DNA of 64,000 nt from Alphaproteobacteria bacterium UBA3864 (lineage in GTDB: Bacteria > Pseudomonadota > Alphaproteobacteria > CAAGCB01 > CAG-977): the NCBI GenBank assembly GCA_002393065.1, contig DGGW01000004.1:16461-80460 (forward strand). The letters are read 5' to 3'. Of the stretch, positions 12,448-63,434 are shown piece by piece. The translations under genes were made by a program, and so were the position numbers. The first letter of the stretch is position 1; each line of letters starts with the position of its first letter. Under the pieces are notes generated by a model. That model was not told the DNA's origin, did not search any database, and saw only the letters and a list, made by a program, of their open reading frames with translations.

Positions 12448-12478
12448 CGGCAGGGATTTTCCCTGCCGTTTCTTTTCA
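12448..12478 (+). terminator. rho-independent terminator ACGGCAGGG-ATTTT-CCCTGCCGT followed by TTCTTTTC
   Basis: Perfect 9-bp stem with a T-rich tail, directly after the 20-codon micro-ORF. Confidence 0.5.
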
Positions 12479-12654
12479 CGGGATTTCGTTTTTAACAAGC
12501 GGACAAAACAAATAAAAACCCCGCCTTTCGATTTCAGAAATCGGTTGCAAAAACAGAGGCGTTTTACAATAATGGATTCGGAAACGGGTTGCAAAGAGGT
12601 TGCAACGGTGATTTTTCAAAGGAAAGGCTTTTTCTGCGGCGAATGTTTCGGGCA

Positions 12655-12745
12655 ATAAAAAAGCTCTGATTTCTCAAGGCTTTTCGATTGGTGCGGATAG
12701 CGGGACTCGAACCCGCACGAGGACAAGCCTCAACAGATTTTAAGT
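12655..12745. repeat. right copy of the roughly 90-bp direct repeat (terminator plus tRNA-Leu 3' half)
   Basis: See 8361-8450; three short mismatch clusters separate the two copies. Confidence 0.8.
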
Positions 12746-12775
12746 CTGTTGTGTCTACCATTCCACCATATCCGC
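12689..12775 (-). tRNA. tRNA-Leu (anticodon UAA), type II with long variable arm
   Basis: Reverse complement GCGGATATGGTGGAATGGTAGACACAACAGACTTAAAATCTGTTGAGGCTTGTCCTCGTGCGGGTTCGAGTCCCGCTATCCGCACCA folds as a cloverleaf. Anticodon loop CTTAAAA; CCA is encoded. Confidence 0.9.
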
Positions 12776-45743: not shown

Positions 45744-46667
45744 TTATATCCTGACTTCGTCCAGTTTGACGATCGCCTGCTTGATGGCGTCTTCTTCTTC
45801 GGGCGAAAGGGAATCCGTCATGCTTTGACGAACGCCTTTGCCGGTCAGAACGCACGGCAGACTGACACAAGGACCGGTAAAGCCCAATTCGCCTTTCAGC
45901 GGACGGGTCAACGGAACGATCGCCGTCTGATTGTTCAGAACGACGGAAGCCAGATACGCCGTGCATCCGGCGATACCGTAATGCGTGCGGCCTTTGCCTT
46001 TGATGATTTCGGCGCCCATGCCGGCAACGCGTTTCGCGATGGCTTCCTTATCCGCGTCGGTCATCGTCAGTCCGTTTTCCGCCAGATACGTTTTAAGCGG
46101 CAGTCCTTTTATTTCAACGGAACTCCACAACAAAACCTGTCCCGCGCCGTGTTCGCCCGCGACCATCGCCCAAACGGCTTTTTCAGGCAACTTCAAAAAG
46201 TCGGCCAGCACATACGTAAAACGGGCGGCGTCAAGCATACAACCGGTTCCGAAAACATGACCGTCCGTTTCATTCAGCCTTTCCGCAATAATGCGCGTCA
46301 TCACGTCAACGGGATTGGATACGACGATAACGGGCGCTTTGGCCTTATTTGCTTTCAGGCAATCGGCGACGCTGATCGCGATTTTCGAATTTTTACCGAT
46401 CAGGTCGAGACGGCTTTCATCGGCTTTACGGTTGAATCCCGCGGTAACGATGATCAGATCGCTGTCGCCCGTATCCGCCCAGTTGCCGGCGAAAACACGG
46501 GTCGGACTGATAAAGGAAAAGCCCGGACGGATATCGGCGGCTTCCGCTTTAACGGCGGTTTCGTTGATATCTATCAAAGCGATTTCTTCGGCGATTTCCG
46601 TCAACATCAGCGAATAAGCGATGCTTGATCCGACGAATCCAGTTCCTATGACAGAAATTTTACTCAT
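45744..46667 (-). CDS. L-lactate/malate dehydrogenase-family 2-hydroxyacid dehydrogenase (LDH-like)
   Basis: N-terminus MSKISVIGTGFVGSS and catalytic region GEHG...; 307 aa. Confidence 0.75.
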   Translation of the reverse strand: MSKISVIGTGFVGSSIAYSLMLTEIAEEIALIDINETAVKAEAADIRPGFSFISPTRVFAGNWADTGDSDLIIVTAGFNRKADESRLDLIGKNSKIAISVADCLKANKAKAPVIVVSNPVDVMTRIIAERLNETDGHVFGTGCMLDAARFTYVLADFLKLPEKAVWAMVAGEHGAGQVLLWSSVEIKGLPLKTYLAENGLTMTDADKEAIAKRVAGMGAEIIKGKGRTHYGIAGCTAYLASVVLNNQTAIVPLTRPLKGELGFTGPCVSLPCVLTGKGVRQSMTDSLSPEEEDAIKQAIVKLDEVRI

Positions 46668-46697
46668 GCTTTCTCCCCATTTCAGTATGTAGAATTC

Positions 46698-47708
46698 TTA
46701 TTGACCGGAAATGACATCGTCGTTTTTATCGAACGAATCGTCAAAAACGACATCGCCGACATCGTCCTTTTCCATTTGGATGACATCGTCCGTAACCGCG
46801 TCGCTGCCGATAATCGTATCTTCGGAAACGGCCGGCTTTTCAGGTTCCGCATGATTGTTTCCCAAACGTCCGATGATGAAATCGAGCTCTTCAAGCGAAG
46901 CATACGAAACGACCAACTCCCCGCCTTTGGCTTTGGGACGGATGGAAACTTTCAATTCGAGCATTTGCGACAATTCGTTGGCCAAAAATTCCCATTCGTC
47001 GTTTTTCTTGTTCGTTTTATCGACGGATTTCTTTTGCTTCTTTTCGGGAATGCCTTTTTGGGCAAGCTTTTCCGTTTGACGGACGCTCAATCCTTTTGAA
47101 ACGACTTCTTCGGCCAAAGCGACGGGATCTTTTGCCGTCAGCAACGCGCGGGCGTGGCCGCCGGTCAGTTTTCCGCTTTCCAACAATTCTTTGACGGGTT
47201 GCGGAAGGCCGAGCAATCGCATCGTGTTCGCGACATGACTGCGACTTTTTCCGACAGCCTGCGCCAGTTCTTCCTGCGTATTGGCAAATTCCTCCATCAG
47301 ACGGCGGTAGCCTTCGGCTTCTTCCAAAGCGTTCAAATCCTGCCGCTGCAGGTTTTCGATCAAAGCGACTTCCAGAGCTTCCTTGTCCGAAAAGTCTTTG
47401 ATCAAAACGGGAACTTCCGTCAATCCCGCCGCCTGCGCCGCGCGCCAACGCCGTTCGCCGCCGATGATTTCGTATTTTTCGGCTTCGTTCGGAATCCTGC
47501 GAACGATCAAAGGCTGTAAAATCCCTTTGACTTTAACGGATTCGATCAAGTCCCGAATAGCGTCTTCGTTAAAAACCCGTCGAGGCTGAAACCGACTGGG
47601 TTCCAAGTCGGAAACGGGCAAAGACGAAACGGATCCCGTCGATCTGTTCGTATTTTCTTCTTCGGCGCCGAGCAACATGCTTAAACCGCGACCCAAACCT
47701 TTACTCAT
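46698..47708 (-). CDS. parB: chromosome partitioning protein ParB with an acidic C-terminal extension
   Basis: ParB box GERRWRAA, HTH, dimerisation domain, plus an extra ~40-aa Asp/Val-rich tail. Confidence 0.9.
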   Translation of the reverse strand: MSKGLGRGLSMLLGAEEENTNRSTGSVSSLPVSDLEPSRFQPRRVFNEDAIRDLIESVKVKGILQPLIVRRIPNEAEKYEIIGGERRWRAAQAAGLTEVPVLIKDFSDKEALEVALIENLQRQDLNALEEAEGYRRLMEEFANTQEELAQAVGKSRSHVANTMRLLGLPQPVKELLESGKLTGGHARALLTAKDPVALAEEVVSKGLSVRQTEKLAQKGIPEKKQKKSVDKTNKKNDEWEFLANELSQMLELKVSIRPKAKGGELVVSYASLEELDFIIGRLGNNHAEPEKPAVSEDTIIGSDAVTDDVIQMEKDDVGDVVFDDSFDKNDDVISGQ

Positions 47709-48493
47709 TTTTTCACCTCTTGTTTTAATATTTCCGCCGCCAAACCTATATAAGCCTGCGATCCTCTGCTTTTGAAATCGTACAGCAAAATCGGTTTGCC
47801 GTGCGACGGCGCTTCGGAAACGCGAACGTTTCTGGGAATGACGGTTTTATAAACCTTGTCCCCGAAATAGCTTCGCACGTCTTGGGCAACGACCTCGGAA
47901 AGCCCCGTCCGGCCGTCATACATCGTCAAAACCAGCCCTTGAATGATCAAATCGTGATTGAAATTCCTGTGCACCAGTTCGACCGTTTTCATCAGATCGG
48001 CCAGACCTTCCAGCGCCAGATATTCGCATTGGACGGGAATCATGACGCCGCGGGCCGCGACAAGAGCGTTGACTGTCAGCATCCCGACGGAAGGCGGACA
48101 ATCTATAAAAATGTAATCATATGCCAGCGATTCCTGATCGAAAGCTTTTTTCAGATAAAACTGCGGATTCTTTTTTTGCGCCAGTTCGAAATCGACACCG
48201 GCCAGATCCTTTGACGCCGCGATAACGGACAAGTTCGGAATCTTCGTCCAAATGATGGCGGACGAAATCGTCGCGTCACCCATCATAACATCGTAAGCGT
48301 TTCTGGCGGCCTTGACCCGGCTGACGCCCAGACTGACCGTCGCGTTTCCCTGCGGATCCAGATCGATCAGCAAAACTTTTCGCCCGGCCGCCGCCAAAGC
48401 GGTCGCCACATTAATTGCCGTCGTCGTTTTGCCGACACCGCCTTTCTGATTCGAAACGGCGATGATGTACGGTTTTTTATTCAGGACATTCAT
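47705..48493 (-). CDS. parA: chromosome partitioning ATPase ParA (Soj)
   Basis: Deviant Walker A KGGVGKTT; 262 aa. Confidence 0.9.
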   Translation of the reverse strand: MNVLNKKPYIIAVSNQKGGVGKTTTAINVATALAAAGRKVLLIDLDPQGNATVSLGVSRVKAARNAYDVMMGDATISSAIIWTKIPNLSVIAASKDLAGVDFELAQKKNPQFYLKKAFDQESLAYDYIFIDCPPSVGMLTVNALVAARGVMIPVQCEYLALEGLADLMKTVELVHRNFNHDLIIQGLVLTMYDGRTGLSEVVAQDVRSYFGDKVYKTVIPRNVRVSEAPSHGKPILLYDFKSRGSQAYIGLAAEILKQEVKK

Positions 48494-49110
48494 TTCTTAC
48501 GAACCTCCGCCATACATAAAATACGGCCTTCTTCACTGGTCTGACTTTGAACCTTTTTAAGGTCAAAATCAAATTTTTTCAAACACGTTTTAATTTCTTC
48601 CTCGGCTTTTTTCCCTTTCATGAACAAACAACGGGTATGTTTATCCGTAAACGGCAAAGCGTAAGCCGTCAATTTATCAAGCGAAGCCAACGCTCGCGCC
48701 GTGATGACATCGACTTTGAAAGGCGTCATTTTTTCGATTCTGCCGTTATGAACGATAATATTGTCAGCCCCGCACTTCAAGGCGGCCTCTTTCAAAAAAT
48801 CACTTTTACGCCCTTCGCTTTCCGTTAAATGGAAAATCTTGTCCGGATTCATCAGCGCCAGAACGAAAGCCGGAAAACCGGCGCCGCTTCCAAAATCCAA
48901 AATCGTTTTATCCGTTGTCTTCAACAAACCGGACAACTGCGCCGAATCCAAAACATGACGCGTCCATATCACCGGTAACGTCGAATCGGCGATCAAATTC
49001 ATAACGGACTGGGTTTGTTCAAGAAAAGAAATATAAACATCCAATTTGCCGACGACATCCTCGGACAAATTCAAACGCTTCAAAACCGTTTCGCGTTCAT
49101 CGGAAATCAC
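48490..49110 (-). CDS. rsmG: 16S rRNA (guanine527-N7)-methyltransferase
   Basis: 206 aa. SAM motif DFGSGAGFP; rsmG-parA-parB joined by ATGA overlaps. Confidence 0.9.
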   Translation of the reverse strand: MISDERETVLKRLNLSEDVVGKLDVYISFLEQTQSVMNLIADSTLPVIWTRHVLDSAQLSGLLKTTDKTILDFGSGAGFPAFVLALMNPDKIFHLTESEGRKSDFLKEAALKCGADNIIVHNGRIEKMTPFKVDVITARALASLDKLTAYALPFTDKHTRCLFMKGKKAEEEIKTCLKKFDFDLKKVQSQTSEEGRILCMAEVRKK

Positions 49111-49205
49111 AATGCAAACTCCTTAAACCGATTTCTTAAGAAACCGTTACGGCTAAAATAGCTTGCTTAAGGGGATAGGACAAGAAAAATTTTACATTTT
49201 CAAAA

Positions 49206-49221
49206 TGTTTCACGTGAAACA
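49206..49221. promoter_or_regulatory. parS centromere site TGTTTCACGTGAAACA (perfect match)
   Basis: Canonical 16-bp ParB-binding palindrome, 96 bp upstream of the rsmG start in the rsmG-hslU spacer. Confidence 0.85.
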
Positions 49222-49319
49222 TAAAACAGAATATAAAGAAAACAGACAGATAGCTCCGCTAAAACAAAAACGGCGACAGAATCCCGACGCCGTTGAAAAT
49301 AAGAAAGCTAAACAAAACG

Positions 49320-50624
49320 TTACAAAATAAACTTCGACAAATCTGTACGCTTCGACAATTTGCCGACCTTTTCGCGAACGTCTTGCGCCGTAATCACTTT
49401 TGATTCACCACTTTTGTCCGGTGCTTCAAAACTGATGTCTTCCAACAGCTTTTCCAATATCGTATGCAACCGCCGCGCGCCGATGTTTTCAACGGATTCG
49501 TTGATTTCCGTGCACAAAGAAGCGATTTCCTTCAAAGCGTCGTCGTCGAAATCCAGATCAAAGTTTTCCGTTTTCAGCAACGCCTTGTACTGCAGAATCA
49601 AATTATTCTCCGGTTCGGTTAAGATTCGGTAAAAATCCTCTTGTTTCAATGAATCCAATTCGACGCGGATAGGCAAACGTCCCTGCAGTTCCGGCAATAA
49701 ATCCGACGGTTTCGATACATGGAAAGCGCCGGAAGCGATAAAGAGAATGTGATCCGTTTTAACGGCGCCTCGTTTTGTCTGAACGGTCGTCCCTTCGATC
49801 AAAGGCAACAAATCGCGCTGAACGCCTTCGCGGGAAATGTCCGGTCCACGGCTTTCGCTACGCCCGCAAATTTTGTCAAATTCGTCGATAAAAACGATGC
49901 CGTTGTTTTCAACGGATTCAATGGCGGCTTTAACGACTTTTTCGTCGTCGATCAGATTATCGCTTTCTTCGGTGATCAGGATATCGTACGAATCCGCCAC
50001 CGTCATTTTCTTTTTCTTGAACGAAACCATCTTGCCGCCGAGCAGATCGCTCAAAGAAAACATCCCCATCTGCGCGCCGGGCATTCCCGGAACGTCAAAC
50101 GTCGGCATGGCATTGTTTTTATTATCGCGAATGTCGATTTCTATTTCCCTGTTCGCCAGAGAACCGTTCCGCAACATTTCCTTAAATTTGGCGCGTGTTT
50201 CGTCGGACGCCTTTTCGCCGACCAAAGCATCAAGGACGCGTTCTTCGGCACGGGCTTCCGCTTTGACGCGAACTTCCTTGCGCATGGCTTGGCGCGTCAT
50301 GTTGATCGACGTTTCCAGCAAATCGCGAATGATGCTTTCGACGTCGCGGCCGACATAGCCGATTTCGGTGAACTTCGTCGCTTCGACTTTGATGAAAGGG
50401 GCTTGTGCCAGTTTTGCCAGCCGACGGGCGATCTCCGTTTTGCCGACGCCGGTCGGTCCGATCATCAGGATATTTTTAGGAACGATCTCTTCGCGTAAAA
50501 AAGGCGAAAGCTGCTGACGCCGCCACCGGTTGCGCAAAGCGATGGCAACGGCGCGCTTGGCATCGGTTTGACCGATAATGTAGCGATCCAATTCGGAAAC
50601 GATTTCTCTGGGTGAAAAAGTCAT
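49320..50624 (-). CDS. hslU: ATP-dependent protease ATPase subunit HslU
   Basis: Walker A GPTGVGKT; 434 aa. Confidence 0.9.
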
Positions 50625-51151
50625 AGTTTTTCCATAATGATGTTATGATTGGTGTAAATGCAGATATCGGCGGCGATCGTCATCGCTTTCATCGCGATCT
50701 GTTCGGCCGTCAGATCGGAATCCGCCAAAGCCAAAGCGGCGGCCTGCGCGAACGACCCGCCCGAACCGATGCCGACGATGCCGTTTTGAGGTTCCAAAAC
50801 GTCGCCGTTTCCCGTCAGGACAAGAATCGTTTCCTTGTCGGCAACAATCATCATCGCTTCAAGCTTTCTTAAATACCGATCCGTTCTCCAGTCTTTGGCG
50901 AGTTCGACGCAGGCGCGGGTCAGCTGTCCCGAATGCTTTTCGATTTTTTCTTCCAGCCGTTCGCACAGCGTAAAGGCATCCGCCGTCGCACCGGCAAATC
51001 CGGTTACGATGTCGCCCTTTCCCAAACGGCGAAGTTTTTTAGCATTGCTTTTCAAAACGGTATTGCCAAACGTCACCTGACCGTCGCCGGCCATGACGAC
51101 ATCGCCGTCTTTGCGCACGCAAAGGATTGTCGTCCCTCTTAAATCGTCCAT
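50621..51151 (-). CDS. hslV: ATP-dependent protease subunit HslV (with short N-terminal propeptide)
   Basis: Mature N-terminus [10 protein letters not shown] is preceded by MDDLRG, as in alphaproteobacterial HslV. Confidence 0.9.
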
Positions 51152-51264
51152 GTCAAAACCTCCTTTTCCGATTCGGCTTTGAAAAGATTTTGACGGAACA
51201 AAAGTTAAAAATCAATGCGTTCTTCCGAATAAAAACTCCCTTCGGTTGACGAAGGGAGCTTTTA

Positions 51265-51840
51265 TCACCAGTTGTTCATTTTCAATTCGTAATAAGCCTT
51301 GGCGTGCAAACATGCCGGACACATTTCCGGCGGTTCTTCGCCGACATAGGTGTAACCGCAGTTCCGGCATTGCCACACGGTTTCTTTGTTTCGTTTGAAA
51401 ACGCGGCCTTCTTTGATGTTTTCGGCCAAATCAAGATAGCGCTGTTCGTGATTTCTTTCGGCGACGATGATCGCACGGAAAGCGGCGGCAACTTCGGGAT
51501 ATCCTTCTTCGTCCGCCGTTTTTGCAAAAGAAGGATATAAGTCTTCGGCTTCGTGATGTTCGCCGGCGGCGGCTTCCGTCAGATTATCAAGCGTCGTGCC
51601 GATAACGCCGGCCGGATAAGTCCCTTCGATAACGCATTCGCCGCCTTCCAGAAATTTAAAAAAACGTTCGGCGTGTTCTTTTTCCTGATCGGCCGTTAAT
51701 CTGAAAATGTCGGCGATCTGTTCGTATCCTTCCTTTTTCGCCTGCGACGCCCAAAAAGTGTAGCGCATTCTGGCCTGGCCTTCGCCGGCGAAAGCGGCCA
51801 TTAAATTCTTTTCCGTTTGAGAACCTTTGATACACTTCAT
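51265..51840 (-). CDS. rubrerythrin (ferritin-like di-iron domain plus C-terminal rubredoxin-like CxxC...CxxC)
   Basis: Motifs EGQARMRY, EKEHAE, EHHEAE and C-terminal CRNCGY...CPAC. Confidence 0.85.
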   Translation of the reverse strand: MKCIKGSQTEKNLMAAFAGEGQARMRYTFWASQAKKEGYEQIADIFRLTADQEKEHAERFFKFLEGGECVIEGTYPAGVIGTTLDNLTEAAAGEHHEAEDLYPSFAKTADEEGYPEVAAAFRAIIVAERNHEQRYLDLAENIKEGRVFKRNKETVWQCRNCGYTYVGEEPPEMCPACLHAKAYYELKMNNW

Positions 51841-51949
51841 TTTTTTTCCTTTCAGTTTGATAAAAAAAATTTAGAGGAAAGGAAAAAAAAGTAAATCGCG
51901 TCTTACGGATAAAAAAATCCTCTTTAAGTTTTAAAGAGGATTTTTGTTT

Positions 51950-53203
51950 TTAAGAGTTCATCGCTTCAAAGAAATCGTGGTTGTTTTTTGACTGTTTGAG
52001 TTTTTCCATCAAAAATTCCATTGCGTCCGCCGGTCCCATCGGCATCAGGATACGACGCAATACCCACATTTTCGATTGAGTGTTCTTATCGACAAGCAAT
52101 TCTTCCTTGCGCGTTCCCGAACGGGTGATGTCGATCGCGGGGAAGATGCGTTTATCGGACACTTTGCGGTCAAGAATGATTTCCGAATTGCCCGTTCCTT
52201 TGAATTCTTCAAAAATAACTTCGTCCATACGGGAACCGGTGTCGATCAGGGCGGTCGCGATAATGGTCAGGGAACCGCCTTCCTCGATATTGCGGGCGGC
52301 GCCGAAAAAGCGTTTCGGTTTTTGAAGAGCGTTGGCGTCGACGCCGCCGGTCAGCACCTTTCCGGAGCTGGGAACGACCGTATTGTAAGCGCGTGCCAAA
52401 CGCGTGATCGAATCGAGCAGAATGACGACGTCGCGCTTGTGTTCGACAAGGCGTTTCGCTTTTTCGATGACCATTTCGGCGACCTGAACGTGACGGGCCG
52501 CCGGTTCGTCAAACGTCGAGCTGATGACTTCGCCTTTGATCGACCGGCTCATTTCCGTAACTTCTTCGGGGCGTTCGTCGATCAACAGGACAATCAGGTA
52601 CATTTCAGGATTGTTCTGCGTAATGGCGTGAGCGATGTTCTGCAACATGACGGTTTTACCGGTTCTGGGCGGCGCGACGATCATGCCGCGCTGTCCTTTG
52701 CCTTGCGGACAAATCAGGTCGATGATGCGGGACGTCATGTTTTTGCTGTCGACATCGCCTTCCATTTTGATTTTTTCCGTCGGATGAAGCGGCGTCAGGT
52801 TGTCGAAATTGATACGATAACGGACCGATTCGGGATCGCAGAAGTTGATTTTCAACACCTTCGTCAAAGAAAAATAACGTTCGCCGTCCTTCGGGGCGCG
52901 GATTTCCCCTTCGACGGTATCGCCGGTTCTTAAACCGAATTTTTTGATTTGGCTGGGCGAAACGTAAATATCATCGGAACCGGCCAGATAGTTTGCCTGC
53001 GGAGAACGCAGAAAACCGAATCCGTCCTGCATGACCTCTATGACGCCTTCATCAATGAGTATTTCGTCGTTTTTGGCCAGTTGTTTCAAAACGGCGAACG
53101 TCAGATCTTGCGTCCGCAACATGGATGCGTTTTCGATACCTTGTTCTTCGGCTAAATTCAACAATTCGGCAGGGGATTTTTTCTTTAATTCTTTTAAATG
53201 CAT
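51950..53203 (-). CDS. rho: transcription termination factor Rho
   Basis: Start MHLKELKK at 53203. Motifs GFGFLR, Walker [10 protein letters not shown] and R loops. The longer ORF start is unlikely. Confidence 0.9.
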
Positions 53204-53642
53204 GGAAACCGCACTATAATATTTATCGTAAGAGGGGGAGAAAACGGCATCAGAACCGTGCCGCACGATTTTTTGTATGCTTAAAAAGCATCGGCGTCAA
53301 GCACAAAGAGTTTTCCCTTCTAAAAATATAAATATTAAAAAGATGATGTTTGATATTATTCCCTGTTGATAAGTATGACGCAATATTATCAACACTTTTT
53401 GCACATAAGGAGTCAAAAGCTTTTTATTCTTTCCGACGATGTTGACAATCGGGAACGACTCCGTCAAAACGGGCGGAAAACCTTTGTCTGTGAATAAGTT
53501 TGATAACTTTTTATCCCTTTTTTGACCGGTTTGAGCAAAAAAATCTGTTCAGAGTACATAAAAAAGAGGACTTTTGTTCGCAAAAGGGATAAAAAGGAAA
53601 CAGGCGCTTTTTTATCATACTTATACACAAGGAGGGCTAAAC
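53204..53642. other. candidate chromosomal replication origin (oriC) or extended rho leader: AT-rich divergent rho/maf spacer with DnaA-box-like 9-mers
   Basis: TTATCAACA at 53386-53394 (+) and 53364-53372 (-); TTATTCACA at 53489-53497 (-). Coding-strand bias switches here; parS sites lie nearby. Confidence 0.45.
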
Positions 53643-54233
53643 ATGTTGATATTGGCTTCGCAAAGCAAAAGCAGACAGGAAATGCTTGACGCCGCAGGTG
53701 TTGAGTTCACGGTCGTTTCCGCCGGTATTGACGAAGACGCCGTCCGCGACCGTTCCCGCGCCGAAGGGGATACGTCCAAAGAAGCGAGCATGAAACTGGC
53801 TTTGGCCAAAGCGATGGCCGTTTCCGAACAGTATCCGGAAGCGTACGTCATCGGCGCGGATCAGATCCTTGATCTGAACGGGGAATGGTTCAGCAAACCC
53901 GAAAATTTAAGTATGGCGCACAAGCATTTGAAAAAATTGCGTAATAAGAGCCATTTGCTGGTCAACGGCATCGCGGTCGTCAAAAATAAAAAGGTGATTT
54001 GGTGCGACAACAGCGTCGTTAAAGTGACGATGCGCGATTTTTCGGACAATTTCCTGGACGATTATCTGGCCGAAGCGGGGGAGGAAGTTTGCGAATCCGT
54101 CGGTGCTTATTATCTTGAGGATTTAGGTGCTCAACTGGTCAAATCGATCGACGGCGATTTCTTTTCCGTTCTCGGGTTGCCGCTTTTGCCGTTGCTTGAC
54201 TGTCTGCGTTCGTGCGGAGAGCTTCAAAAATGA
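53643..54233 (+). CDS. maf: Maf-like nucleoside-triphosphate pyrophosphatase
   Basis: Start MLILASQSKSRQEML after an AAGGAGGG RBS; Maf signature. Confidence 0.85.
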   Translation: MLILASQSKSRQEMLDAAGVEFTVVSAGIDEDAVRDRSRAEGDTSKEASMKLALAKAMAVSEQYPEAYVIGADQILDLNGEWFSKPENLSMAHKHLKKLRNKSHLLVNGIAVVKNKKVIWCDNSVVKVTMRDFSDNFLDDYLAEAGEEVCESVGAYYLEDLGAQLVKSIDGDFFSVLGLPLLPLLDCLRSCGELQK

Positions 54234-55027
54234 AAAAAGCCGGAGTCGTCGGAAATCCGGTCGCCCATTCAAAATCGCCGCTGATCCATTCGTACTGGCT
54301 TAAAAAGTACGAAATAGAGGCTTCGTATGAAAAAATCAAAGCGGATGATATCGCTTCGTTTATAAAAAACGCCGGAGAATACACGGGTTTTAACGTTACC
54401 GTTCCTTTTAAAACGGATATAATGCCGTTTATGGACGTTTTGTCGGATCAGGCAAAAAAAGCCGGCGCCGTCAATACGGTCGTCGTTCGTTCGGACGGTT
54501 CCTTTTACGGTCATAATACGGACGGAGCGGGATTCGTCGCCAACGTAAAAAGGGCTGATCCTTCTTTTAATATTAAAGAGTCTGTCGTCGTCATACTCGG
54601 GACCGGCGGTGCGGCCCGCGGTGTTTGTGCGGCCCTGACGGAAGCCAAAGAGGTCAGACTTGTTTACAGAACTCTTGAAAAGGCCGAAAAAATAAAGGAA
54701 TCCGTCGGTGAAAACATTGTTTTGATTCCGTGGGCGGATAAAGAGGACGTTTTATCCGATGCCGATTTGCTGGCCAACGCTACGACTCTGGGCATGAACG
54801 GATTTGATCCGCTTAAAATAGATTTGACGCCTTTGAAAAAAACGGCCGTTGTTTCTGATCTTGTTTACGCCCCTTTGAAAACGGATTTGCTGAAACAGGC
54901 CGAAAAGAAAGGTTTTATAACGGCCGACGGATTGGGAATGCTGCTTGAACAGGCCAGACCCGCCTTTAAGGAATGGTTCGGCGTTTTTCCGGAAATCACT
55001 GACGAATTAAGGGCTTTGGTCTTATGA
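54230..55027 (+). CDS. aroE: shikimate dehydrogenase
   Basis: Start MKKAGVVGNPVAHSKSPLIH (ATGA overlap with maf); motif ILGTGGAARG. Confidence 0.85.
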   Translation: MKKAGVVGNPVAHSKSPLIHSYWLKKYEIEASYEKIKADDIASFIKNAGEYTGFNVTVPFKTDIMPFMDVLSDQAKKAGAVNTVVVRSDGSFYGHNTDGAGFVANVKRADPSFNIKESVVVILGTGGAARGVCAALTEAKEVRLVYRTLEKAEKIKESVGENIVLIPWADKEDVLSDADLLANATTLGMNGFDPLKIDLTPLKKTAVVSDLVYAPLKTDLLKQAEKKGFITADGLGMLLEQARPAFKEWFGVFPEITDELRALVL

Positions 55028-55602
55028 TCATAGGATTGACGGGCGAAATGGGCGCCGGAAAATCAACGGCCGCGCAAATGTTAAGAAAAACGGGATTGCC
55101 CGTTTTTGACGCCGACGAGCAAGTTCATCTTTTAATGAAAAATAACAAAGAGTTAAAAGATATATTTAAGGAAAAATTTAAAGAATCCGTCACCGAAAAC
55201 GGAATCGACAGGACCGTTTTGAGCCGTTTAATCAGCGAAGGAAAAACGACTCCGGAAATCATTGAAAAACTGATTTATCCTTTTTTGATCAAAGAGTTGG
55301 ATAAATTTCTTGATTTGAACGATCCCGCCGTTCTGGACGTTCCCCTTTTATTTGAAGCGGGATGGGACAAATACTGCGATAAAATCGTTTTTCTGACGGC
55401 GTCGCCCGAAACACTGCGTCAAAGGGTTTTCGCCCGTTCGGGAATGACGGAAGAAAAATATAAAGCTTTGAGTGCCCGTTTTTGGAATACGGATTTGAAA
55501 AAAAGTAAATCCGATTATATCATTTTTACCGATGAAGGACTTGAACCCGTTGAAAGACGGCTGATCGAAATAAGGAACGAGTTATGCGCGAAATCGTTTT
55601 AG
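55024..55602 (+). CDS. coaE: dephospho-CoA kinase
   Basis: P-loop GLTGEMGAGKST; ATGA overlap with aroE. Confidence 0.85.
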   Translation: MIIGLTGEMGAGKSTAAQMLRKTGLPVFDADEQVHLLMKNNKELKDIFKEKFKESVTENGIDRTVLSRLISEGKTTPEIIEKLIYPFLIKELDKFLDLNDPAVLDVPLLFEAGWDKYCDKIVFLTASPETLRQRVFARSGMTEEKYKALSARFWNTDLKKSKSDYIIFTDEGLEPVERRLIEIRNELCAKSF

Positions 55603-56276
55603 ATACGGAAACGACGGGATTGGACCCGTATTCGGGACACCGTTTGGTTTCCGTCGGATGCGTCGAATTGGAAAATCACCGGCCGACGGGAAAAAAGTAT
55701 TACCGTCTGATCAATCCCGAACGCGACGTTCCCGAAGAAGTCGTCAAAGTTCACGGTTTAACCAACGAAATCCTTGATAAAGAACCGCCGTTCAGGGATA
55801 TCGTCGATGAATTTTTGGCTTTTATAAGCGATTCTCCGCTCGTCATTCATAATGCGGAATTCGATATGAAATTCCTGAACGCCGAACTGTCGATGGCGGG
55901 AAAGCCCGTTTTGCCGATGGAAAGGGCAATAGACACGCTTCTGATCGCGCGCCGCAAATTTCCCGGCAGCCGCGTCAGTTTGGACGAGCTTTGCAAACGT
56001 TTCGGCATCGATAATTCAAAAAGAACGACTCACGGGGCTTTGTTGGATTCCGAATTATTGGCCGACGTTTATTTCGAATTGCTCGGCGGCCATGAAACAG
56101 GGTCTTTGTTTGAGGAAAAAAAGCAGACGGTCCTTGAAATCAAAGCGGCGAACGAAGCGCTCCGAATGCCGGAAAAGCCCCGGATCGAACCGAGACCGCC
56201 CGTTTTTTGCGACGGCGAGCTCGATAATCACGAGGCTTTCGTTAAAAAGCTGAAAAAACCGCTTTGGCTCAATTGA
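55584..56276 (+). CDS. dnaQ: DNA polymerase III epsilon subunit (3'-5' exonuclease)
   Basis: Exo I motif VLDTETTGLDP, Exo II and Exo III (HGALLDSELLADVY). Confidence 0.9.
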   Translation: MREIVLDTETTGLDPYSGHRLVSVGCVELENHRPTGKKYYRLINPERDVPEEVVKVHGLTNEILDKEPPFRDIVDEFLAFISDSPLVIHNAEFDMKFLNAELSMAGKPVLPMERAIDTLLIARRKFPGSRVSLDELCKRFGIDNSKRTTHGALLDSELLADVYFELLGGHETGSLFEEKKQTVLEIKAANEALRMPEKPRIEPRPPVFCDGELDNHEAFVKKLKKPLWLN

Positions 56277-56757
56277 GCTTTTCTTTGTTTTGCTCTTCCT
56301 GCTGTTTCTTCAATTCGGCCAAACGCTGATGATACAGGCCGACAAAGTCGATCGGATTGATCATGAGCGGCGGGAATCCGCTGTCACGAGTCATATCCGC
56401 AATGATGTTGCGAACGAACGGGAACAGCAAACGCGGCACTTCGATCAGCAAAATCGGTTCGACGTGTTCCGGCGGCAGAGCGATCGTCGTCAAACAACCG
56501 TAATCGACTTCGCACAAAAAAGCCACCTTGTCTTCGACTTTGGCTTCGGCTTTAATTTTCAGACTGACCTGAAACAGGTTTTCCTGAACTTTTCCGGCTT
56601 CGACGTTGACATTGACGGAAATTTCGGGCGCTGATTTCAGTTCGGTGAAAATTTGCGGGACATGGGGCGCTTCAAAAGAAACGTCTTTGACAAACTGGGC
56701 GTTGATCGTGATGGCTTGTTGCGGTTGTTGAGCCGCTTCGTTGTTTTTTTCGGTCAT
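56269..56757 (-). CDS. secB: protein-export chaperone SecB
   Basis: 162 aa. SecB fold (FTELKSAPEISVNVNVE...); acidic C-terminus. Confidence 0.9.
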   Translation of the reverse strand: MTEKNNEAAQQPQQAITINAQFVKDVSFEAPHVPQIFTELKSAPEISVNVNVEAGKVQENLFQVSLKIKAEAKVEDKVAFLCEVDYGCLTTIALPPEHVEPILLIEVPRLLFPFVRNIIADMTRDSGFPPLMINPIDFVGLYHQRLAELKKQQEEQNKEKLN

Positions 56758-56823
56758 GGTTAACTCCTGAATTGAAATTTTGGGCAGTTTAACTTAAACT
56801 GTCCTAAAAAGAAAGAGAAAGGT

Positions 56824-57507
56824 TTGAAAATTATGTCACAGCAGTTGCAATTTATGGATATCGTCTTTTTGGGTATCGTCGTTCTTCTTCTTGTCATACG
56901 GCTGCGCGGCGTTTTGGGAACACGCCCGGACAATGATGTCCGCAAACAGAATTTTAAATCTAAAATCGTTGATATTTCAGAATACCGTACCGTTAAAAAC
57001 GATAACGAAACGCAAGACATTCCCGTTGAAAACATAACGGACAAAGACGAGGAAGTTTTAAAAACCGTTCGTCGGATCACGGAAAAATATCCGCAATTCA
57101 ACCTTTCCGATTTTATGCGCAAGGCGACGCGGGCTTTCGAATATATCGCGCAGGCTTTCGCGAACGGAAACAAGCAGGATCTGCTTCCGTTGTTGAGCCA
57201 TGATATCTACAAACGGTTCGAAAAAGTCATTGATGAACGGAAAAGCAAAGGCGAAACGGCTGAATTTTCCCTGATCGGATTTAAGAATGTCAAATTGGTA
57301 GGTGCTGGGGAAATAGGCGATCTGGTGGAAATGACCGTCGAATTTGAAACGGAGCAGACGAATATCGTCAAAAACGCGGCCGGCGATATCATCATGGGTG
57401 ATCCGACCTATATCGAAACGGTAACGGATGTATGGACTTTGCGGAAAGAAATGACGGAAAAAACGCCCGTTTGGATTTTGACTGCGACACATCATAAGCA
57501 ACCGTAA
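56824..57507 (+). CDS. Tim44-like domain membrane protein
   Basis: N-terminal TM helix and a C-terminal Tim44/NTF2-like fold. Adjacent to secB as in alphaproteobacteria. Confidence 0.65.
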   Translation: MKIMSQQLQFMDIVFLGIVVLLLVIRLRGVLGTRPDNDVRKQNFKSKIVDISEYRTVKNDNETQDIPVENITDKDEEVLKTVRRITEKYPQFNLSDFMRKATRAFEYIAQAFANGNKQDLLPLLSHDIYKRFEKVIDERKSKGETAEFSLIGFKNVKLVGAGEIGDLVEMTVEFETEQTNIVKNAAGDIIMGDPTYIETVTDVWTLRKEMTEKTPVWILTATHHKQP

Positions 57508-57510
57508 AGC

Positions 57511-58509
57511 ATGAAGCTTGTTTATTTCGCCGTTTTTGCCCTTTCGTTCTGTCTGACCGTTTGCTTTTTTGAAAAAGGGTCCGAAAAGGAAATCGTTGAT
57601 AAAGAGTTGGCGCTTGTCGGTTTTGAGCGTTTGAACGGTTTTTCAAAAGATAACGTTCTTGAAGCCTTACCGGCTTTGAAAAAAAGTTGCACGGTCCTTA
57701 AAAAAAAGCGGCGGTGGAAGAAGTTTTGTTTCGCGCTGAAAAATAAGAAATTTGAAACGTCTGCCGATCTGGCCGATTTTATAAAAGAACGGATGAAACC
57801 GTACTCTTTCGGTCAAACGGGACTGTTTACGGGATATTATAAACCGGAACTGGACGGTGCTTTATCAAAAACGGAAAAATTCAAAGTTCCCGTGTACGGT
57901 ATGCCGTCCGAAAGCAAAAAAAATCTGACGCGTAAGGAAATAGACGAAGGGGCGTCGGACGCCGAACCGATAGCGTGGATCGAACATAAGGCCGATTTGT
58001 TTATCGTGCAGGTTCAGGGATCCGCTGTTTTAAATCTTCCCGACGGCAAAAAAATATCGCTGAATTATGCCGGAAACAATGGTCACCCTTTCTTCGGAAT
58101 AGGTAAAGTGATGGCGAAAAAGGGGATCCATGATATGCAAAAAATCAGGCGTTGGCTGATCGATCATCCGGAAAAAGCCGACGCCTTCATGCATTTGAAC
58201 AAGCGTTATATTTATTTCAAAACGGATAGGGAAACGGATGCCATCGGGACTTTGGGCGTTGCGTTGACGGCGCAAAGAAGCATGGCCGTCGATCCTGCTT
58301 TCGTTCCGTTGGGAGCGCCGGTTTGGTTGGAAACGGTCGATTCCGACGGTCGGCCTCTTCGCCGTTTGGTCGTCGCGCAGGATACGGGAAGCGCGATAAA
58401 AGGACGCGTTCGCGGCGACTTTTATTGGGGAAGCGGTCAAAAGGCTTTGGAAAAAGCCGGCCGTATGAAGTCCAAAGGGACTTATTTTATTTTGTTGCCC
58501 GACGAATAA
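57511..58509 (+). CDS. mltA: murein transglycosylase A (MltA, 3D domain)
   Basis: Signal peptide plus the C-terminal 3D domain motif VAQDTGSAIKG..RGDFYWGSG. Confidence 0.8.
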   Translation: MKLVYFAVFALSFCLTVCFFEKGSEKEIVDKELALVGFERLNGFSKDNVLEALPALKKSCTVLKKKRRWKKFCFALKNKKFETSADLADFIKERMKPYSFGQTGLFTGYYKPELDGALSKTEKFKVPVYGMPSESKKNLTRKEIDEGASDAEPIAWIEHKADLFIVQVQGSAVLNLPDGKKISLNYAGNNGHPFFGIGKVMAKKGIHDMQKIRRWLIDHPEKADAFMHLNKRYIYFKTDRETDAIGTLGVALTAQRSMAVDPAFVPLGAPVWLETVDSDGRPLRRLVVAQDTGSAIKGRVRGDFYWGSGQKALEKAGRMKSKGTYFILLPDE

Positions 58510-58578
58510 AGTTTGAAATCAAAAGTCCTTGCGCGGAAACGGTCGCGGCGGTATCCTGTCAGACCGAAGGAAAAAATT

Positions 58579-59061
58579 ATGTTGAATATCAAACCGCCGA
58601 CACGTGAAGAAAAGCTCATTTTTCAGGGATTGCAAAAAGCGATCCTTGAAGACAAGGCCTTTATTGAAATCAATTTCAGACGGTTGAACAGGTTCGGATC
58701 GCCTTTTTTCAATCCGTGGGAAAATATTTTGCCACTGTTGTTTTTTGTTTTTCTGTTTTTTGCCACGTTGTTTGTGTTCGGCATGGCGGCGGCGACGGTG
58801 TTATTGGCTTTTCTGGCTTTGGGATACGCTTTTCTGATGCCGTATTTCTTAAAGCCTTTTATGAAAAACAGAGTTATTAAAAGAATCGTTCCCAGAATCG
58901 AAAAATTTTTGATCGCATGGCGTTTCGGCGGCTTTACGATTTATCTGGCGGCGGATCCGAATTATAAATGCCGCGCCATGCTGGACGATTGGAAACCGTT
59001 TGTTCAGACATACTTTGCCGATCTGATTCCCGCCGATTCGGAGGAAAAAGAAAATGAGTGA
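58579..59061 (+). CDS. hypothetical membrane protein
   Basis: Start MLNIKPP after a GAAGGAAAAAA RBS; two or three TM helices; between mltA and the smr gene. Confidence 0.45.
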   Translation: MLNIKPPTREEKLIFQGLQKAILEDKAFIEINFRRLNRFGSPFFNPWENILPLLFFVFLFFATLFVFGMAAATVLLAFLALGYAFLMPYFLKPFMKNRVIKRIVPRIEKFLIAWRFGGFTIYLAADPNYKCRAMLDDWKPFVQTYFADLIPADSEEKENE

Positions 59062-59572
59062 CGACGATCTTTGGCAAGCCGTCGTCAAAACGGTCAAACC
59101 TCTCGGTTCGAAAAAAAATCCCGAAAAAGCGGAAAATATATCATTAGAAAAGAAATTATCTTTAAATATCAAGCCCTTAAGACGTGATCCAGATTTGGAT
59201 GTCAAAACATACGCTCCGTTGGAAGCTGGGGATATTTCCGCTCTGGACAGAAAGAACGGCAAACGATTGAAAGCGGGTGAGATGCCCGTTGAAGGACGGC
59301 TCGATTTGCACGGCCACACGCTTGAAACGGGATTCGAAGCGTTAAAGAACTTTATTTACCATTATAATAAAGTCAATGCGCGTTGTCTGCTGGTCATTAC
59401 CGGCAAAGGCGGTTTTTCGGGACGCGGCGTGATCAGGGCGGAATTTCAAAACTGGATGAATTCGCCCGAGATACGCAGTTTGATTCTGGCTTTTTCGCCG
59501 GCGCAGATCCGTGACGGCGGCGACGGCGCTTTTTATGTTCTGCTCCGGCGATGCAGAAAGGACAAATCATGA
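59054..59572 (+). CDS. Smr-domain protein
   Basis: C-terminal Smr motif LDLHGHTLETGFEALKNFIYHY...LLVITGKG. Confidence 0.75.
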   Translation: MSDDDLWQAVVKTVKPLGSKKNPEKAENISLEKKLSLNIKPLRRDPDLDVKTYAPLEAGDISALDRKNGKRLKAGEMPVEGRLDLHGHTLETGFEALKNFIYHYNKVNARCLLVITGKGGFSGRGVIRAEFQNWMNSPEIRSLILAFSPAQIRDGGDGAFYVLLRRCRKDKS

Positions 59573-60876
59573 AGAATACGATTTTCGCTCCGGCAACGGC
59601 GGCGGGAAAAGCCGGTGTTGCGATCGTGCGTGTTTCCGGACCGGACGCCACGGCCGTTTTTGAAAGATTTGGGGTCCGAAAAGACATCGAACCGCGCAAA
59701 GCCGTTTTCGCGAAGCTGAAAAAAGCCGACGGAACGCCGATCGACGACGCGGTCGTCCTTTATTTCAAAGCACCGAACAGCTTTACGGGCGAAGACGTCG
59801 TCGAGCTTCAGACTCACGGCGGCCGCGCCGTTTTGTCGTCCGTTTTGGCCGAATTGAGCCTGATCGACGGTTTCCGTCCCGCCGACAGGGGCGAATTCAC
59901 CCGCCGTGCCGTCGAAAACGGTAAAATGGATCTGACGGCCGCCGAAGGATTGGCGGATCTGGTCGATGCCGAAACGGAACAACAGCGGAAGCAGGCTTTG
60001 CGGCAAATGAACGGCGACCTCGGCCGGCTGTACGACGGATGGCGGGAGGAGCTTGTCCGCCTTTTGGCGTGGAGTGAAGCCTACATCGACTTTCCCGAAG
60101 AGGAGATCCCCGCCGACGTTTCCGAAAGAATCAGGGGAAAAATCACGGAGCTGAAAGCCGCCGTTGAAAATCATCTGCAAAACGGAAAACGGGGCGAACG
60201 GTTGCGCGACGGGTTCCAGATCGCGATCGTCGGCGCGCCGAACGCCGGCAAGTCAAGCCTAATGAACCGGTTGGCCGACCGCGACGTCGCGATCGTGTCG
60301 TCAACGGCGGGAACGACGCGGGACGTGATCGAGGTCCGCATGGACATCAACGGATATCCCGTCGTCATCGCGGATACGGCCGGATTACGGCAAACGGACG
60401 AGGTAATCGAGGCCGAAGGCGTCCGCCGCGCCAAAAAGCGGGCGAAGGAGGCCGATTTGATTCTGGCCGTTTACGACGCTTCCGCACCGGTGGAGGACTC
60501 CGAAACGAAGGCTTTTCAGGGCGGCAACGTTTTGAAAATCATGAACAAGAAGGACAAGGTGTCCGATTGTTCGGGCGAAGGGCTTTGGATTTCCGCCAAA
60601 ACGGGGGAAGGAACGGACGCTTTGCTCGACAGGATCGCCGGCTTTGTCGAAAACGCCCTTTCGATGAGGGAGGAGCCGTCTCTGACGCGCGTGCGGCACA
60701 GACAGTCTTTGGAGGAGTACCGCGATTATCTCGAACGGTCGCTTTCGGCACCTGAAATCGAATTGGCGGCGGAGGATCTGCGCCTTGCCATGCGGGCTTT
60801 GGGAAAAATCACGGGTGCCGTCCGCGTCGAGGAATTGCTGGATATCATTTTTAAGGATTTTTGCATAGGGAAATGA
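59569..60876 (+). CDS. mnmE: tRNA modification GTPase MnmE
   Basis: Start MKNTIFAPATAAGKAGVAIVRVSG (ATGA overlap with smr). G-domain GAPNAGKSSL and C-terminal CIGK. Confidence 0.9.
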   Translation: MKNTIFAPATAAGKAGVAIVRVSGPDATAVFERFGVRKDIEPRKAVFAKLKKADGTPIDDAVVLYFKAPNSFTGEDVVELQTHGGRAVLSSVLAELSLIDGFRPADRGEFTRRAVENGKMDLTAAEGLADLVDAETEQQRKQALRQMNGDLGRLYDGWREELVRLLAWSEAYIDFPEEEIPADVSERIRGKITELKAAVENHLQNGKRGERLRDGFQIAIVGAPNAGKSSLMNRLADRDVAIVSSTAGTTRDVIEVRMDINGYPVVIADTAGLRQTDEVIEAEGVRRAKKRAKEADLILAVYDASAPVEDSETKAFQGGNVLKIMNKKDKVSDCSGEGLWISAKTGEGTDALLDRIAGFVENALSMREEPSLTRVRHRQSLEEYRDYLERSLSAPEIELAAEDLRLAMRALGKITGAVRVEELLDIIFKDFCIGK

Positions 60877-62735
60877 ACATGTATGACGTTATAGTTGTCG
60901 GTGGCGGCCACGCCGGTTGCGAAGCGGCGGCGGCGGCGGCGCGGACCGGAGCGAACACGCTGCTTTTGACGCATAAGATCGCGACGCTCGGTGAAATGTC
61001 GTGCAATCCGGCGATCGGCGGGCTGGGCAAAGGGCACTTGGTCCGCGAAATCGACGCGCTGGACGGGCTGATGGGGCGGATCGCGGACAAAGGCGGCATT
61101 CAGTTTCGCATGCTGAACGCGTCGAAAGGGCCGGCTGTCCGCGGTTTGCGCGCGCAGGAGGACCGGAAGCTCTACCGCGATGCCATGCGCGAGGAATTGC
61201 TGCATTACGACGGCCTGACCGTTATCGAAGGCGCCGTTGAAGGGCTTTTGTTCGAAGAAACCGTCGGCCGGAAGACCGTCACGGGCGTCGAAACGGCGGA
61301 TCACACCGTTTATAAGGGAAAAACCGTTGTTCTGACGGCGGGGACTTTTCTGAAAGGTCTGATGCATGTCGGCGAACGGAAAACCGTCGGCGGACGTGTC
61401 GGCGAGATTTCCTGCGAACACGTTTCGGATTCGCTCGCGGCTTTGGGGCTGACTGTCGGACGGTTGAAAACGGGAACGCCCGCGCGTCTGGACGGCCGGA
61501 CGATCGATTATTCGCAACTTCAAAAGCAGGACGGTGATGCGGTCATCGAACCGTTTTCTTATCTGGACAAGGAAATCACGACGCCGCAGGTCCCCTGCTA
61601 CATCACGGCGACGAACATCGAAACGCATAGGATCATTCGCGCGAACATGAGCAGGGCGCCCCTGTTTTCAGGTCAGATCAAAGGCGTCGGTCCCCGCTAT
61701 TGTCCCAGTATCGAAGACAAGCTCGTCAAATTCCCCGACCGCGATTCCCACCACGTATTTTTGGAACCGGAGGGATTGGACGATTTCACCGTGTATCCGA
61801 ACGGAATTTCGACGTCCTTGCCCGAAGACGTGCAGGACGCGATGATCCATTCGATCAAAGGATTGGAAAACGTGCGGATTATCCGGCCGGGCTACGCGAT
61901 CGAATACGATTATGTCGATCCCGTCGAAATGAAGCGGACGCTTGAAACGAAAAAGGTCGAAAATCTGTTTATCGCCGGACAACTCAACGGCACGACCGGA
62001 TACGAGGAAGCAGGGGCTCTGGGATTGCTGGCGGGTGTCAACGCGGCATTGAAGGCGGCAAACGATTCCCGCGAATTCACCCTCGATCGGGCGGACGCTT
62101 ATCTGGGCGTGATGATCGACGATTTGACGACGAAAGGCGTCGATGAGCCGTACCGCATGTTTACCTCCCGTGCCGAATACCGGTTGCTGTTGCGTTCGGA
62201 CAATGCGGATATGCGGCTGACGCAAAAAGGGATCGACATCGGTTGCGTCGGCAAAGCCCGTCGCGACGCTTTTTACGACAAACGCAATCGGTTGGAGGAG
62301 GCGCACGAAAAACTTCTTTCGGTCGGCGGTACGCCGCGCGAATTGGAAAAACTCGGCTTCACGGTCAACCGCGACGGCGCCCGGCGGACGGGGGAAGACC
62401 TGCTTTCCTACGAAGGCGTGACGTGGGATAAATTAGCCGAAGTGTTTCCCGTTTTGAAAGGCACGCGGACGGACGTCGCCGAACAGTTGGAAATCGCGTC
62501 TTTATATAAAGGCTATCTCCAACGGCAGGAATCGGATATCCGCGCTTTCCGCAAAGACGAGGCGATGAAGATCCCCGCCGATATAGATTACGGAAAAGTC
62601 GGCGGTCTGTCGAACGAGATCCGGATCAAGCTGTCAAAGTTCAGACCGGAAACGCTTGGCGCGGCATCCCGCGTTTCAGGTGTGACACCGGCGGCGGTGA
62701 CGGCGATCCTCGGCTATGTGAAGTCGATGAAATAA
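60873..62735 (+). CDS. mnmG: tRNA uridine 5-carboxymethylaminomethyl modification enzyme MnmG (GidA)
   Basis: FAD motif YDVIVVGGGHAGCEAA. Start MNMYDV at 60873 (ATGA overlap with mnmE) or 60879. Confidence 0.9.
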   Translation: MNMYDVIVVGGGHAGCEAAAAAARTGANTLLLTHKIATLGEMSCNPAIGGLGKGHLVREIDALDGLMGRIADKGGIQFRMLNASKGPAVRGLRAQEDRKLYRDAMREELLHYDGLTVIEGAVEGLLFEETVGRKTVTGVETADHTVYKGKTVVLTAGTFLKGLMHVGERKTVGGRVGEISCEHVSDSLAALGLTVGRLKTGTPARLDGRTIDYSQLQKQDGDAVIEPFSYLDKEITTPQVPCYITATNIETHRIIRANMSRAPLFSGQIKGVGPRYCPSIEDKLVKFPDRDSHHVFLEPEGLDDFTVYPNGISTSLPEDVQDAMIHSIKGLENVRIIRPGYAIEYDYVDPVEMKRTLETKKVENLFIAGQLNGTTGYEEAGALGLLAGVNAALKAANDSREFTLDRADAYLGVMIDDLTTKGVDEPYRMFTSRAEYRLLLRSDNADMRLTQKGIDIGCVGKARRDAFYDKRNRLEEAHEKLLSVGGTPRELEKLGFTVNRDGARRTGEDLLSYEGVTWDKLAEVFPVLKGTRTDVAEQLEIASLYKGYLQRQESDIRAFRKDEAMKIPADIDYGKVGGLSNEIRIKLSKFRPETLGAASRVSGVTPAAVTAILGYVKSMK

Positions 62736-62751
62736 AGGGTTGAAACAAAAG

Positions 62752-62779
62752 AAAAGGCGGGGTCTGTCCCCGCCTTTTT
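62752..62779. terminator. bidirectional terminator AAAA-GGCGGGG-TCTGT-CCCCGCC-TTTTT between convergent mnmG and yggS
   Basis: Perfect 7-bp GC stem flanked by an A-run and a T-run. Confidence 0.75.
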
Positions 62780-63434
62780 ATGCGTAATTTCGTTGTCCGA
62801 AAATCGCCGTCCCGACGCGAACGTATGTCGCGCCCAGTTGGACGGCAATCGGGAAATCATTGCTCATTCCCATTGAAAGTTCTTTTAAATTCAGCTGTTT
62901 GGCAAGCTTTTTTAACAGTGCGAAATGTGGTGCCGGTTCATCGTCCACAGGGGGGATACACATCAATCCGACGATATTCAGTCCTAATTCCAGACACTTA
63001 GCGGCGAAACTTAATGTTTCACGTGAAACAATCCCCGATTTCTGAACTTCAGATCCCGTGTTAACTTCGATGAAACAAGGCAGAAAACGGTTTTGTTTCT
63101 TCATTTCATCCGCCAGTTTTTCCGCCACTTCGATGCGGTCAACCGTTTCGATGACATCAAACAACGCAACGGCGTCTTTGACTTTGTTTGTTTGCAGATG
63201 TCCGATCAGATGCAATTCCAGATTAGGATACTTTTCTTTCAAAATGGTAAATTTTTCTTTGGCTTCCTGTACGCGGTTTTCGCCGAAAACGCGCTGGCCG
63301 GCTTCCAGAACGGGCAGGATCTCGTCAACCGTGTGCATTTTCGAAACGGCGATAAGGGTGATGTCCGACGGGTCGCGACCGCAATCTTTCGCCGCGGCAA
63401 CAAGCTGTTCTTTGACTTGCGAATAAGAAGTCAT
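62778..63434 (-). CDS. yggS: YggS-family pyridoxal-phosphate homeostasis protein (alanine-racemase N-terminal-like barrel)
   Basis: 218 aa with PLP-lysine region IAVSKMH and C-terminal TYVRVGTAIFG. Confidence 0.85.
   Translation of the reverse strand: MTSYSQVKEQLVAAAKDCGRDPSDITLIAVSKMHTVDEILPVLEAGQRVFGENRVQEAKEKFTILKEKYPNLELHLIGHLQTNKVKDAVALFDVIETVDRIEVAEKLADEMKKQNRFLPCFIEVNTGSEVQKSGIVSRETLSFAAKCLELGLNIVGLMCIPPVDDEPAPHFALLKKLAKQLNLKELSMGMSNDFPIAVQLGATYVRVGTAIFGQRNYA
63015..63030. promoter_or_regulatory. parS centromere site TGTTTCACGTGAAACA (perfect match, intragenic in yggS)
   Basis: Same 16-mer as 49206-49221. Encodes IVSRET in the yggS frame, so it is a binding site embedded in coding DNA. 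Confidence 0.8.

Follow-up and report, generated by a model that had tools for sequence, protein, structure and literature searches.

The 16-bp palindrome TGTTTCACGTGAAACA at positions 49206-49221 of the 64-kb stretch of DNA analysed here (the window) is very probably a chromosomal parS site, at which ParB, whose gene lies 1.5 kb downstream, would load and nucleate as a dimer. The host is an uncultured alphaproteobacterium known from metagenome contigs. We observe an identity of sequence, a non-random occurrence, conservation at orthologous positions, characteristic motifs in ParB and ParA, and the signals of a replication origin. The site, hereafter parS-1, is genuine and well supported but ordinary: its sequence, its protein, its gene context and its proximity to the origin are all those of a textbook alphaproteobacterial ParABS system.

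The initial annotation had described an exact 16-bp ParB-binding palindrome in a 209-bp spacer upstream of the operon that encodes ParB. Both statements hold, as the coordinates and the published consensus match, and the spacer (49111-49319), which runs from the hslU stop codon at 49320 to the GTG start of rsmG at 49110, precedes rsmG-parA-parB. The palindrome is identical to the published global parS consensus TGTTNCACGTGAAACA (PMC6650430, PMC7022226), and purified ParB from the alphaproteobacterium Hyphomonas neptunium binds the same 16-mer in EMSA (PMC6650430; table in PMC7022226). Together with its flanking bases parS-1 forms an 18-bp palindrome (aTGTTTCACGTGAAACAt), and the start codon of rsmG follows 95 bp downstream. 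Two exact copies occur in the 64-kb window, against 1.3e-5 expected from base composition. When up to three mismatches were allowed, the window gave three matches against 0.38 expected, a number that none of 100 shuffled sequences reached. The coordinates of parS-1 and of the features discussed below are collected in Table 1.

Table 1. Positions of the parS sites, genes and predicted signals in the 64-kb window.
Feature	Position	Strand	Details
parS-like site	7692-7707		TGTTTCACGTAAAACA; one mismatch (15/16); in the intergenic spacer that separates an acetyltransferase gene from an ArsR-family gene
malate/lactate dehydrogenase gene	45744-46667	minus	
parB	46698-47708	minus	336 aa; ParB_N, HTH_ParB and ParB_C domains plus acidic C-terminal tail
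parA (soj-type ATPase)	47705-48493	minus	AAA_31, CbiA and ParA domains; deviant Walker A box KGGVGKTT
rsmG (gidB)	48490-49110	minus	first gene of the operon; Pfam GidB E=1e-41; TIGR00138 132 bits, cut-off 99.5
Shine-Dalgarno AAGGAG of rsmG (GTG start)	49124-49119	minus	
proximal parS remnant	49130-49145		minus strand GGTTTCTTAAGAAATC; 9/16 matches; in register with the proximal parS of L082-L085; in predicted 5' UTR
predicted rsmG-parAB promoter	49155-49183	minus	-35 TTGTCC (49183-49178), 17-nt spacer, -10 TATTTT (49160-49155)
parS-1	49206-49221		perfect 16-bp palindrome; 16/16 consensus matches
likely intrinsic hslU terminator	49261-49294	minus	hairpin AACGGCG...CGCCGUU, then UUUGUUUU; -21.1 kcal/mol, z=-3.0
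hslU	49320-50624	minus	TIGR00390, 598 bits
hslV	50621-51151	minus	
rubrerythrin gene	51265-51840	minus	
rho	51950-53266	minus	
candidate oriC (rho/maf spacer region)	53267-53629		DnaA boxes, AT-rich tract and nearby GC-skew minimum
AT-rich tract of candidate oriC	~53320-53360		
DnaA-box-like 9-mer	53364-53372	minus	
DnaA-box-like 9-mer	53386-53394	plus	
DnaA-box-like 9-mer	53489-53497	minus	
DnaA-box-like 9-mer	53621-53629	plus	
yggS-like gene	62778-63434	minus	YggS-family PLP protein; TIGR00044
parS-2	63015-63030		second perfect copy; within the yggS-like gene, codons 135-140 (I-V-S-R-E-T)

The genes downstream of parS-1 encode the expected partners of such a site. The stop and start codons of rsmG and parA, and likewise those of parA and parB, overlap by 4 bp, which fits an operon. 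Among solved structures, the best match of ParB is the protein from Caulobacter crescentus (6T1F, 7BM8; E=2e-68); the alignment to 6T1F is gap-free over the DNA-binding region, and the recognition helix GKSRSHVANTMRLL is identical in the two proteins. Four Caulobacter positions, 173, 179, 184 and 201, determine specificity for parS rather than for the Noc-binding site; of these, R173 and G201 were reported to be absolutely conserved in parS-binding ParBs, and position 184 accepts any residue (Jalal et al., PMC7383237). Judged by the alignment to 6T1F, where R156, T162, G167 and G184 of the window's ParB correspond to R173, T179, A184 and G201, its specificity residues are of the parS type. The residues Q145, G153, K154, S155, N161 and R187 likewise correspond to the Caulobacter contacts Q162, G170, K171, S172, N178 and R204 (defined in PMC7383237), and the specificity and contact residues are all invariant in a 17-sequence alignment of the clade. 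The CTP-binding motif GERRWRA occupies residues 84-90 (G84-E85-R86-R87-W88-R89-A90) and is conserved in the clade; it has the GERRxRA form that clamp closure and sliding require, and we regard a CTPase activity as putative. The NCBIfam models for plasmid RepB, PRTRC ParB and Noc all scored below their cut-offs against this protein.

ParB is also some 40-50 residues longer than Caulobacter-type ParBs, owing to an acidic tail that follows the ParB_C dimerisation domain (window 46698-46860) and carries the motif D-[VI]-G-[DE]-[VI]-[VI]-F-D-[DG]-S-F ... D-[VI]-[IV]-[ST]. The tail is common to relatives of 56-90% identity, and ParBs of the Rhodospirillales type are without it. This conserved segment (…DVGDVVFDDSF…) may be a partner-binding peptide.

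The position of parS-1 was examined in two sets of relatives. Uncultured Alphaproteobacteria are the source of the nearest ParBs, of which one has 90% identity and a large group about 65%. The loci of six close relatives were retrieved individually (L081-L086). A perfect parS lies 90-138 bp upstream of rsmG in all six, and across the seven aligned orthologous spacers the 16 bases of parS-1 are invariant, against a mean column identity of 53% for the spacer. A profile scan of reference genomes with the ParB alignment supplied a distant set of at least 80 alphaproteobacterial parB loci (1.39 Mb, 42-55% identity). Among the matches listed, 80 such loci held 98 perfect and 76 one-mismatch parS sites, and TGTTTCACGTGAAACA itself was present in exact form in 59 of the 80; a composition-matched control palindrome, allowed up to two mismatches, had no occurrence in the same 80 loci. 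Again among the matches listed for these loci, the sites cluster at set points of the gene block: 67 fall in the mnmE/mnmG interval and 53 within the rsmG match, at its 5' end, while 29 are in the mnmG/rsmG interval or a short way upstream of rsmG. With respect to the projected rsmG start, 63 of the 76 distant loci with enough upstream sequence have a parS between -400 and +300 among the matches listed.

The gene order around these sites differs between the two sets. Most Alphaproteobacteria share the block maf(-), rho-mnmE-mnmG-rsmG-parA-parB, and in the close-relative clade hslV-hslU stands before rsmG, sometimes with two chromate-transporter genes in between; L086, whose ParB is 56% identical, keeps the ancestral order mnmE-mnmG-rsmG. 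The block is split in this clade (window 45744-63434): hslVU-rsmG-parAB and mnmE-mnmG are found on opposite sides of the candidate oriC, mnmE-mnmG being downstream of maf-aroE-coaE-dnaQ-like-secB-tim44-mltA-smr.

In four of the six close relatives (L082-L085) the rsmG start codon is preceded, at a distance of 11-18 bp, by another perfect parS. This proximal site is missing, as a perfect copy, from the window and from its 90%-identical relative L081. In its place the window has the sequence GGTTTCTTAAGAAATC, which retains a 12-bp perfect palindrome, TTTCTTAAGAAA, but not the central ACGT, and which seems to be the decayed remains of a proximal parS. Since the promoter-proximal site that is most widely conserved in other Alphaproteobacteria is missing here, individual sites are dispensable, and the contribution of parS-1 in particular can therefore not be ranked.

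The second perfect copy in the window, parS-2, lies within a coding region, 280 bp past the mnmG stop codon. It is also perfect in the sibling contig L087, and L083, with a YggS of 70% identity, has at these codons a parS with one mismatch, a TCA-to-CCA change that replaces Ser by Pro. From these two occurrences we conclude that the orthologous position of parS-2 is conserved as well. The site is an example of a DNA-level constraint laid over protein-coding sequence. The two perfect copies are 13.8 kb apart and straddle the candidate oriC, from which parS-1 is about 4.2 kb and parS-2, on the opposite side, about 9.6 kb distant. For the host genome the scan for parS covered the 64-kb window and about 2.9 kb past its right edge, the latter on the 14-kb sibling contig L087, and no further site was found in those 2.9 kb. 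The one-mismatch site at the left end of the window is about 45.7 kb from the candidate oriC, and its function as a parS is uncertain.

Not far from this last site, the 3' half of a tRNA-Leu(TAA) gene occurs twice together with its downstream flank (8362-8450 and 12657-12745, 96% identical). The same region has a repeat of 163 nt (8656-8818 and 11925-12087, 89%) as well as an exact one of 21 nt. The repeats bracket about 4.3 kb of DNA of lower G+C content (~44%) with genes for an alpha/beta hydrolase, an FMN reductase and a LysR regulator (window 8362-12775). This pattern suggests an insertion at tRNA-Leu, and no integrase was found for it among the ORFs checked.

The window had further been claimed to be origin-proximal. 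Independent support for this comes from the GC skew, whose minimum is at about 52 kb, and from a conserved module of DnaA boxes and AT-rich DNA at 53.3-53.6 kb. The GC skew is negative until about 52 kb and positive afterwards, with the cumulative G-C minimum at 51853, and gene orientation switches at the 307-bp rho/maf spacer (53267-53573), whose A+T content is 66%, where the window as a whole has 49%. Of the eight TTATNNACA motifs in the window, four are found within 266 bp, in or adjoining this spacer, and two of the DnaA-box-like 9-mers (53364-53372 and 53386-53394) form an inverted pair, TTATCAACA, separated by 13 bp and set beside the AT-rich tract. The orthologous spacers of L081 and L085 have the same inverted pair 13 bp apart, made of perfect TTATCCACA boxes, together with an AT-rich tract; in L081 all three TTATNNACA motifs of 21 kb sit in the orthologous rho/maf spacer. 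On the grounds of GC skew, orientation flip, A+T content, DnaA boxes and conserved layout, we predict that oriC likely lies at 53.3-53.6 kb. Among the ORFs of the window that were scanned, none was identified as dnaA. This candidate origin, the two further sites and the decay here of the relatives' promoter-proximal parS were absent from the initial annotation.

On the transcribed strand the hslU/rsmG spacer reads, from 5' to 3', as the hslU terminator, parS-1, an A/T tract, the predicted promoter, a short 5' UTR, the Shine-Dalgarno sequence and the GTG start. The terminator, whose hairpin part is at 49294-49269, lies 40 bp upstream of parS-1; a simple terminator scan overlooked it, its apical region probably being beyond the loop limit of that scan. 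The promoter is inferred because its elements CTTG[TA].. and TAT[CT]TT and the spacing between them are kept in five to six of the seven orthologous spacers, and it resembles the consensus reported for Sinorhizobium, CTTGAC-N17-CTATAT. An Rfam scan of the window returned two tRNAs only.

This arrangement bears on what else parS-1 might be. One reading holds that it is mainly, or additionally, an operator through which ParB autoregulates rsmG-parAB, its position having been selected for transcription control and not for segregation alone; we consider this possible but unlikely. The A/T tract and the -35 of the conserved promoter-like element follow directly after parS-1, whose centre is about 33 bp upstream of the predicted -35, and in L082-L085 two perfect parS bracket the predicted promoter, the second of them in the 5' UTR in a roadblock-like geometry. 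A parS at the 5' end of rsmG, as in those 63 of 76 distant loci among the matches listed, would suit such a role too. Against it, effects of chromosomal ParBs on transcription are generally weak, the rsmG-parAB promoter is itself a prediction, parS-2 lies in yggS without promoter context, and the loss of the proximal site in this genome and in L081 makes autoregulation through that site dispensable. Chromosomal ParBs do affect the expression of genes near parS (review PMC7022226), and an operator role is in any case compatible with centromere function. A bolder version, which we hold to be speculative and distinctly unlikely, would have two perfect parS bracketing the clade's rsmG-parAB promoter, with ParB clamps regulating their own operon. 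The lineage of the window and its 90% relative would then have lost the proximal site, with TTTCTTAAGAAA left behind, rewiring the feedback while keeping segregation, and the ParB tail would possibly be a partner-binding motif.

It is very improbable that the palindrome is no ParB site at all and arose by chance, or serves as an RNA hairpin or terminator, or as the operator of an unrelated dimeric regulator. The minus-strand RNA can indeed fold a short hairpin followed by UUUU, but this fold is weak and A/U-rich (-6 to -7.8 kcal/mol) with an unremarkable z-score of about -1.7 to -2, and the hslU terminator upstream is far better; we rejected parS-1 as a terminator or RNA hairpin on these grounds. 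A simple promoter scan also placed a -35-like hexamer, TTCACG, inside parS-1. The corresponding sigma-70-like promoter (TTCACG-18-TAAAAT) was discarded as well, being one found against 0.9 expected and having a spacing that is unconserved in relatives, which instead keep CTTGTC-17/18-TAT[CT]TT farther downstream. Chance is opposed by the expectation of 1.3e-5 given above, and the spacer holds no Rfam family. The recurrence of an identical 16-mer within coding sequence and, among the matches listed, in 59 of 80 alphaproteobacterial parB loci likewise speaks against these readings. More improbable still, to the point that we give it almost no credence, is that parS-1 belongs to the partition system of a plasmid or secondary replicon rather than to that of the main chromosome. 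ParB does have weak matches to the plasmid models RepB and PRTRC ParB, but these score far below the cut-offs and are outweighed by its chromosomal-type architecture and its likeness to the ParB of Caulobacter. Core housekeeping genes surround the locus (rho, hslUV, mdh, mnmEG, maf, aroE, coaE, dnaQ-like and secB), the synteny is typical of alphaproteobacterial origin regions, and the candidate origin is marked by DnaA boxes rather than by a rep gene.

As a chromosomal parS, parS-1 can be placed in a mechanism that is well described for the family, in which ParB dimers nucleate at parS, bind CTP, close into clamps and slide (PMC7053999, PMC8367383, PMC5815017). What is known of the family suggests ParB binding, CTP-dependent sliding and segregation in this organism too. 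By analogy with Caulobacter ParB, the helix-turn-helix of the protein would read each half-site of parS-1; ParB loaded there would bind CTP, close into a clamp and slide to the flanking DNA. A partition complex would form in this way, stimulate ParA and be segregated together with the origin, the ParA ATPase using the complex to separate newly replicated origin regions. In this role parS-1 would act with at least one other perfect site, parS-2, and perhaps also with the degenerate copy at 7692; together they would mark a centromere region around the candidate oriC.

Nothing in this system is conceptually new. Mildly interesting are the split mnmEG-rsmG-parAB block, the sites that straddle oriC and the decayed site at the rsmG start. 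The practical value of parS-1 is that it would anchor a metagenome-derived contig at the replication origin and identify the centromere of the organism, which may serve assembly orientation, replichore prediction and the design of ParB/parS labelling or binding experiments.

Comparable systems have been characterised in both near and distant bacteria. The parS cluster of Caulobacter crescentus was reportedly treated by Toro in 2008, and the Spo0J-parS system of Bacillus subtilis is said to go back to Lin and Grossman in 1998. The nearest parallel in the sites themselves is Hyphomonas neptunium, also an alphaproteobacterium, which has the identical 16-mer (Jung et al. 2019, PMC6650430). Like the window, it has few perfect sites (two there, two here), upstream of the par operon and a few kb from the origin, with the parAB operon about 7 kb from hemE (PMC6650430). 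Binding was shown there by EMSA and both sites lie upstream of the operon, whereas here binding is predicted and the sites lie at -4.2 kb and +9.6 kb of the candidate oriC. Caulobacter crescentus supplies the closest solved ParB, with which the recognition helix and CTP motif are shared (Tran et al. 2018, PMC5815017; 6T1F, 7BM8). Its parS cluster is near gidAB-parAB, about 8 kb from ori, and some of the sites are within genes (PMC5815017). At least five sites, mostly imperfect, fall within 5 kb on one arm in Caulobacter, whereas those of the window are fewer, perfect, 13.8 kb apart and on both sides of the origin. The ancestral rho-mnmE-mnmG-rsmG-parAB block is, in contrast to Caulobacter, split in the present clade, with hslVU before rsmG. 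The Spo0J-parS system of B. subtilis shares the palindrome consensus, the proximity to the origin, the presence of sites on both sides of oriC and a site in coding sequence (Taylor et al. 2015, PMC4333373), but it belongs to another phylum, the C-terminal domain of its ParB binds DNA non-specifically, and it has more widely spread sites (PMC5815017).
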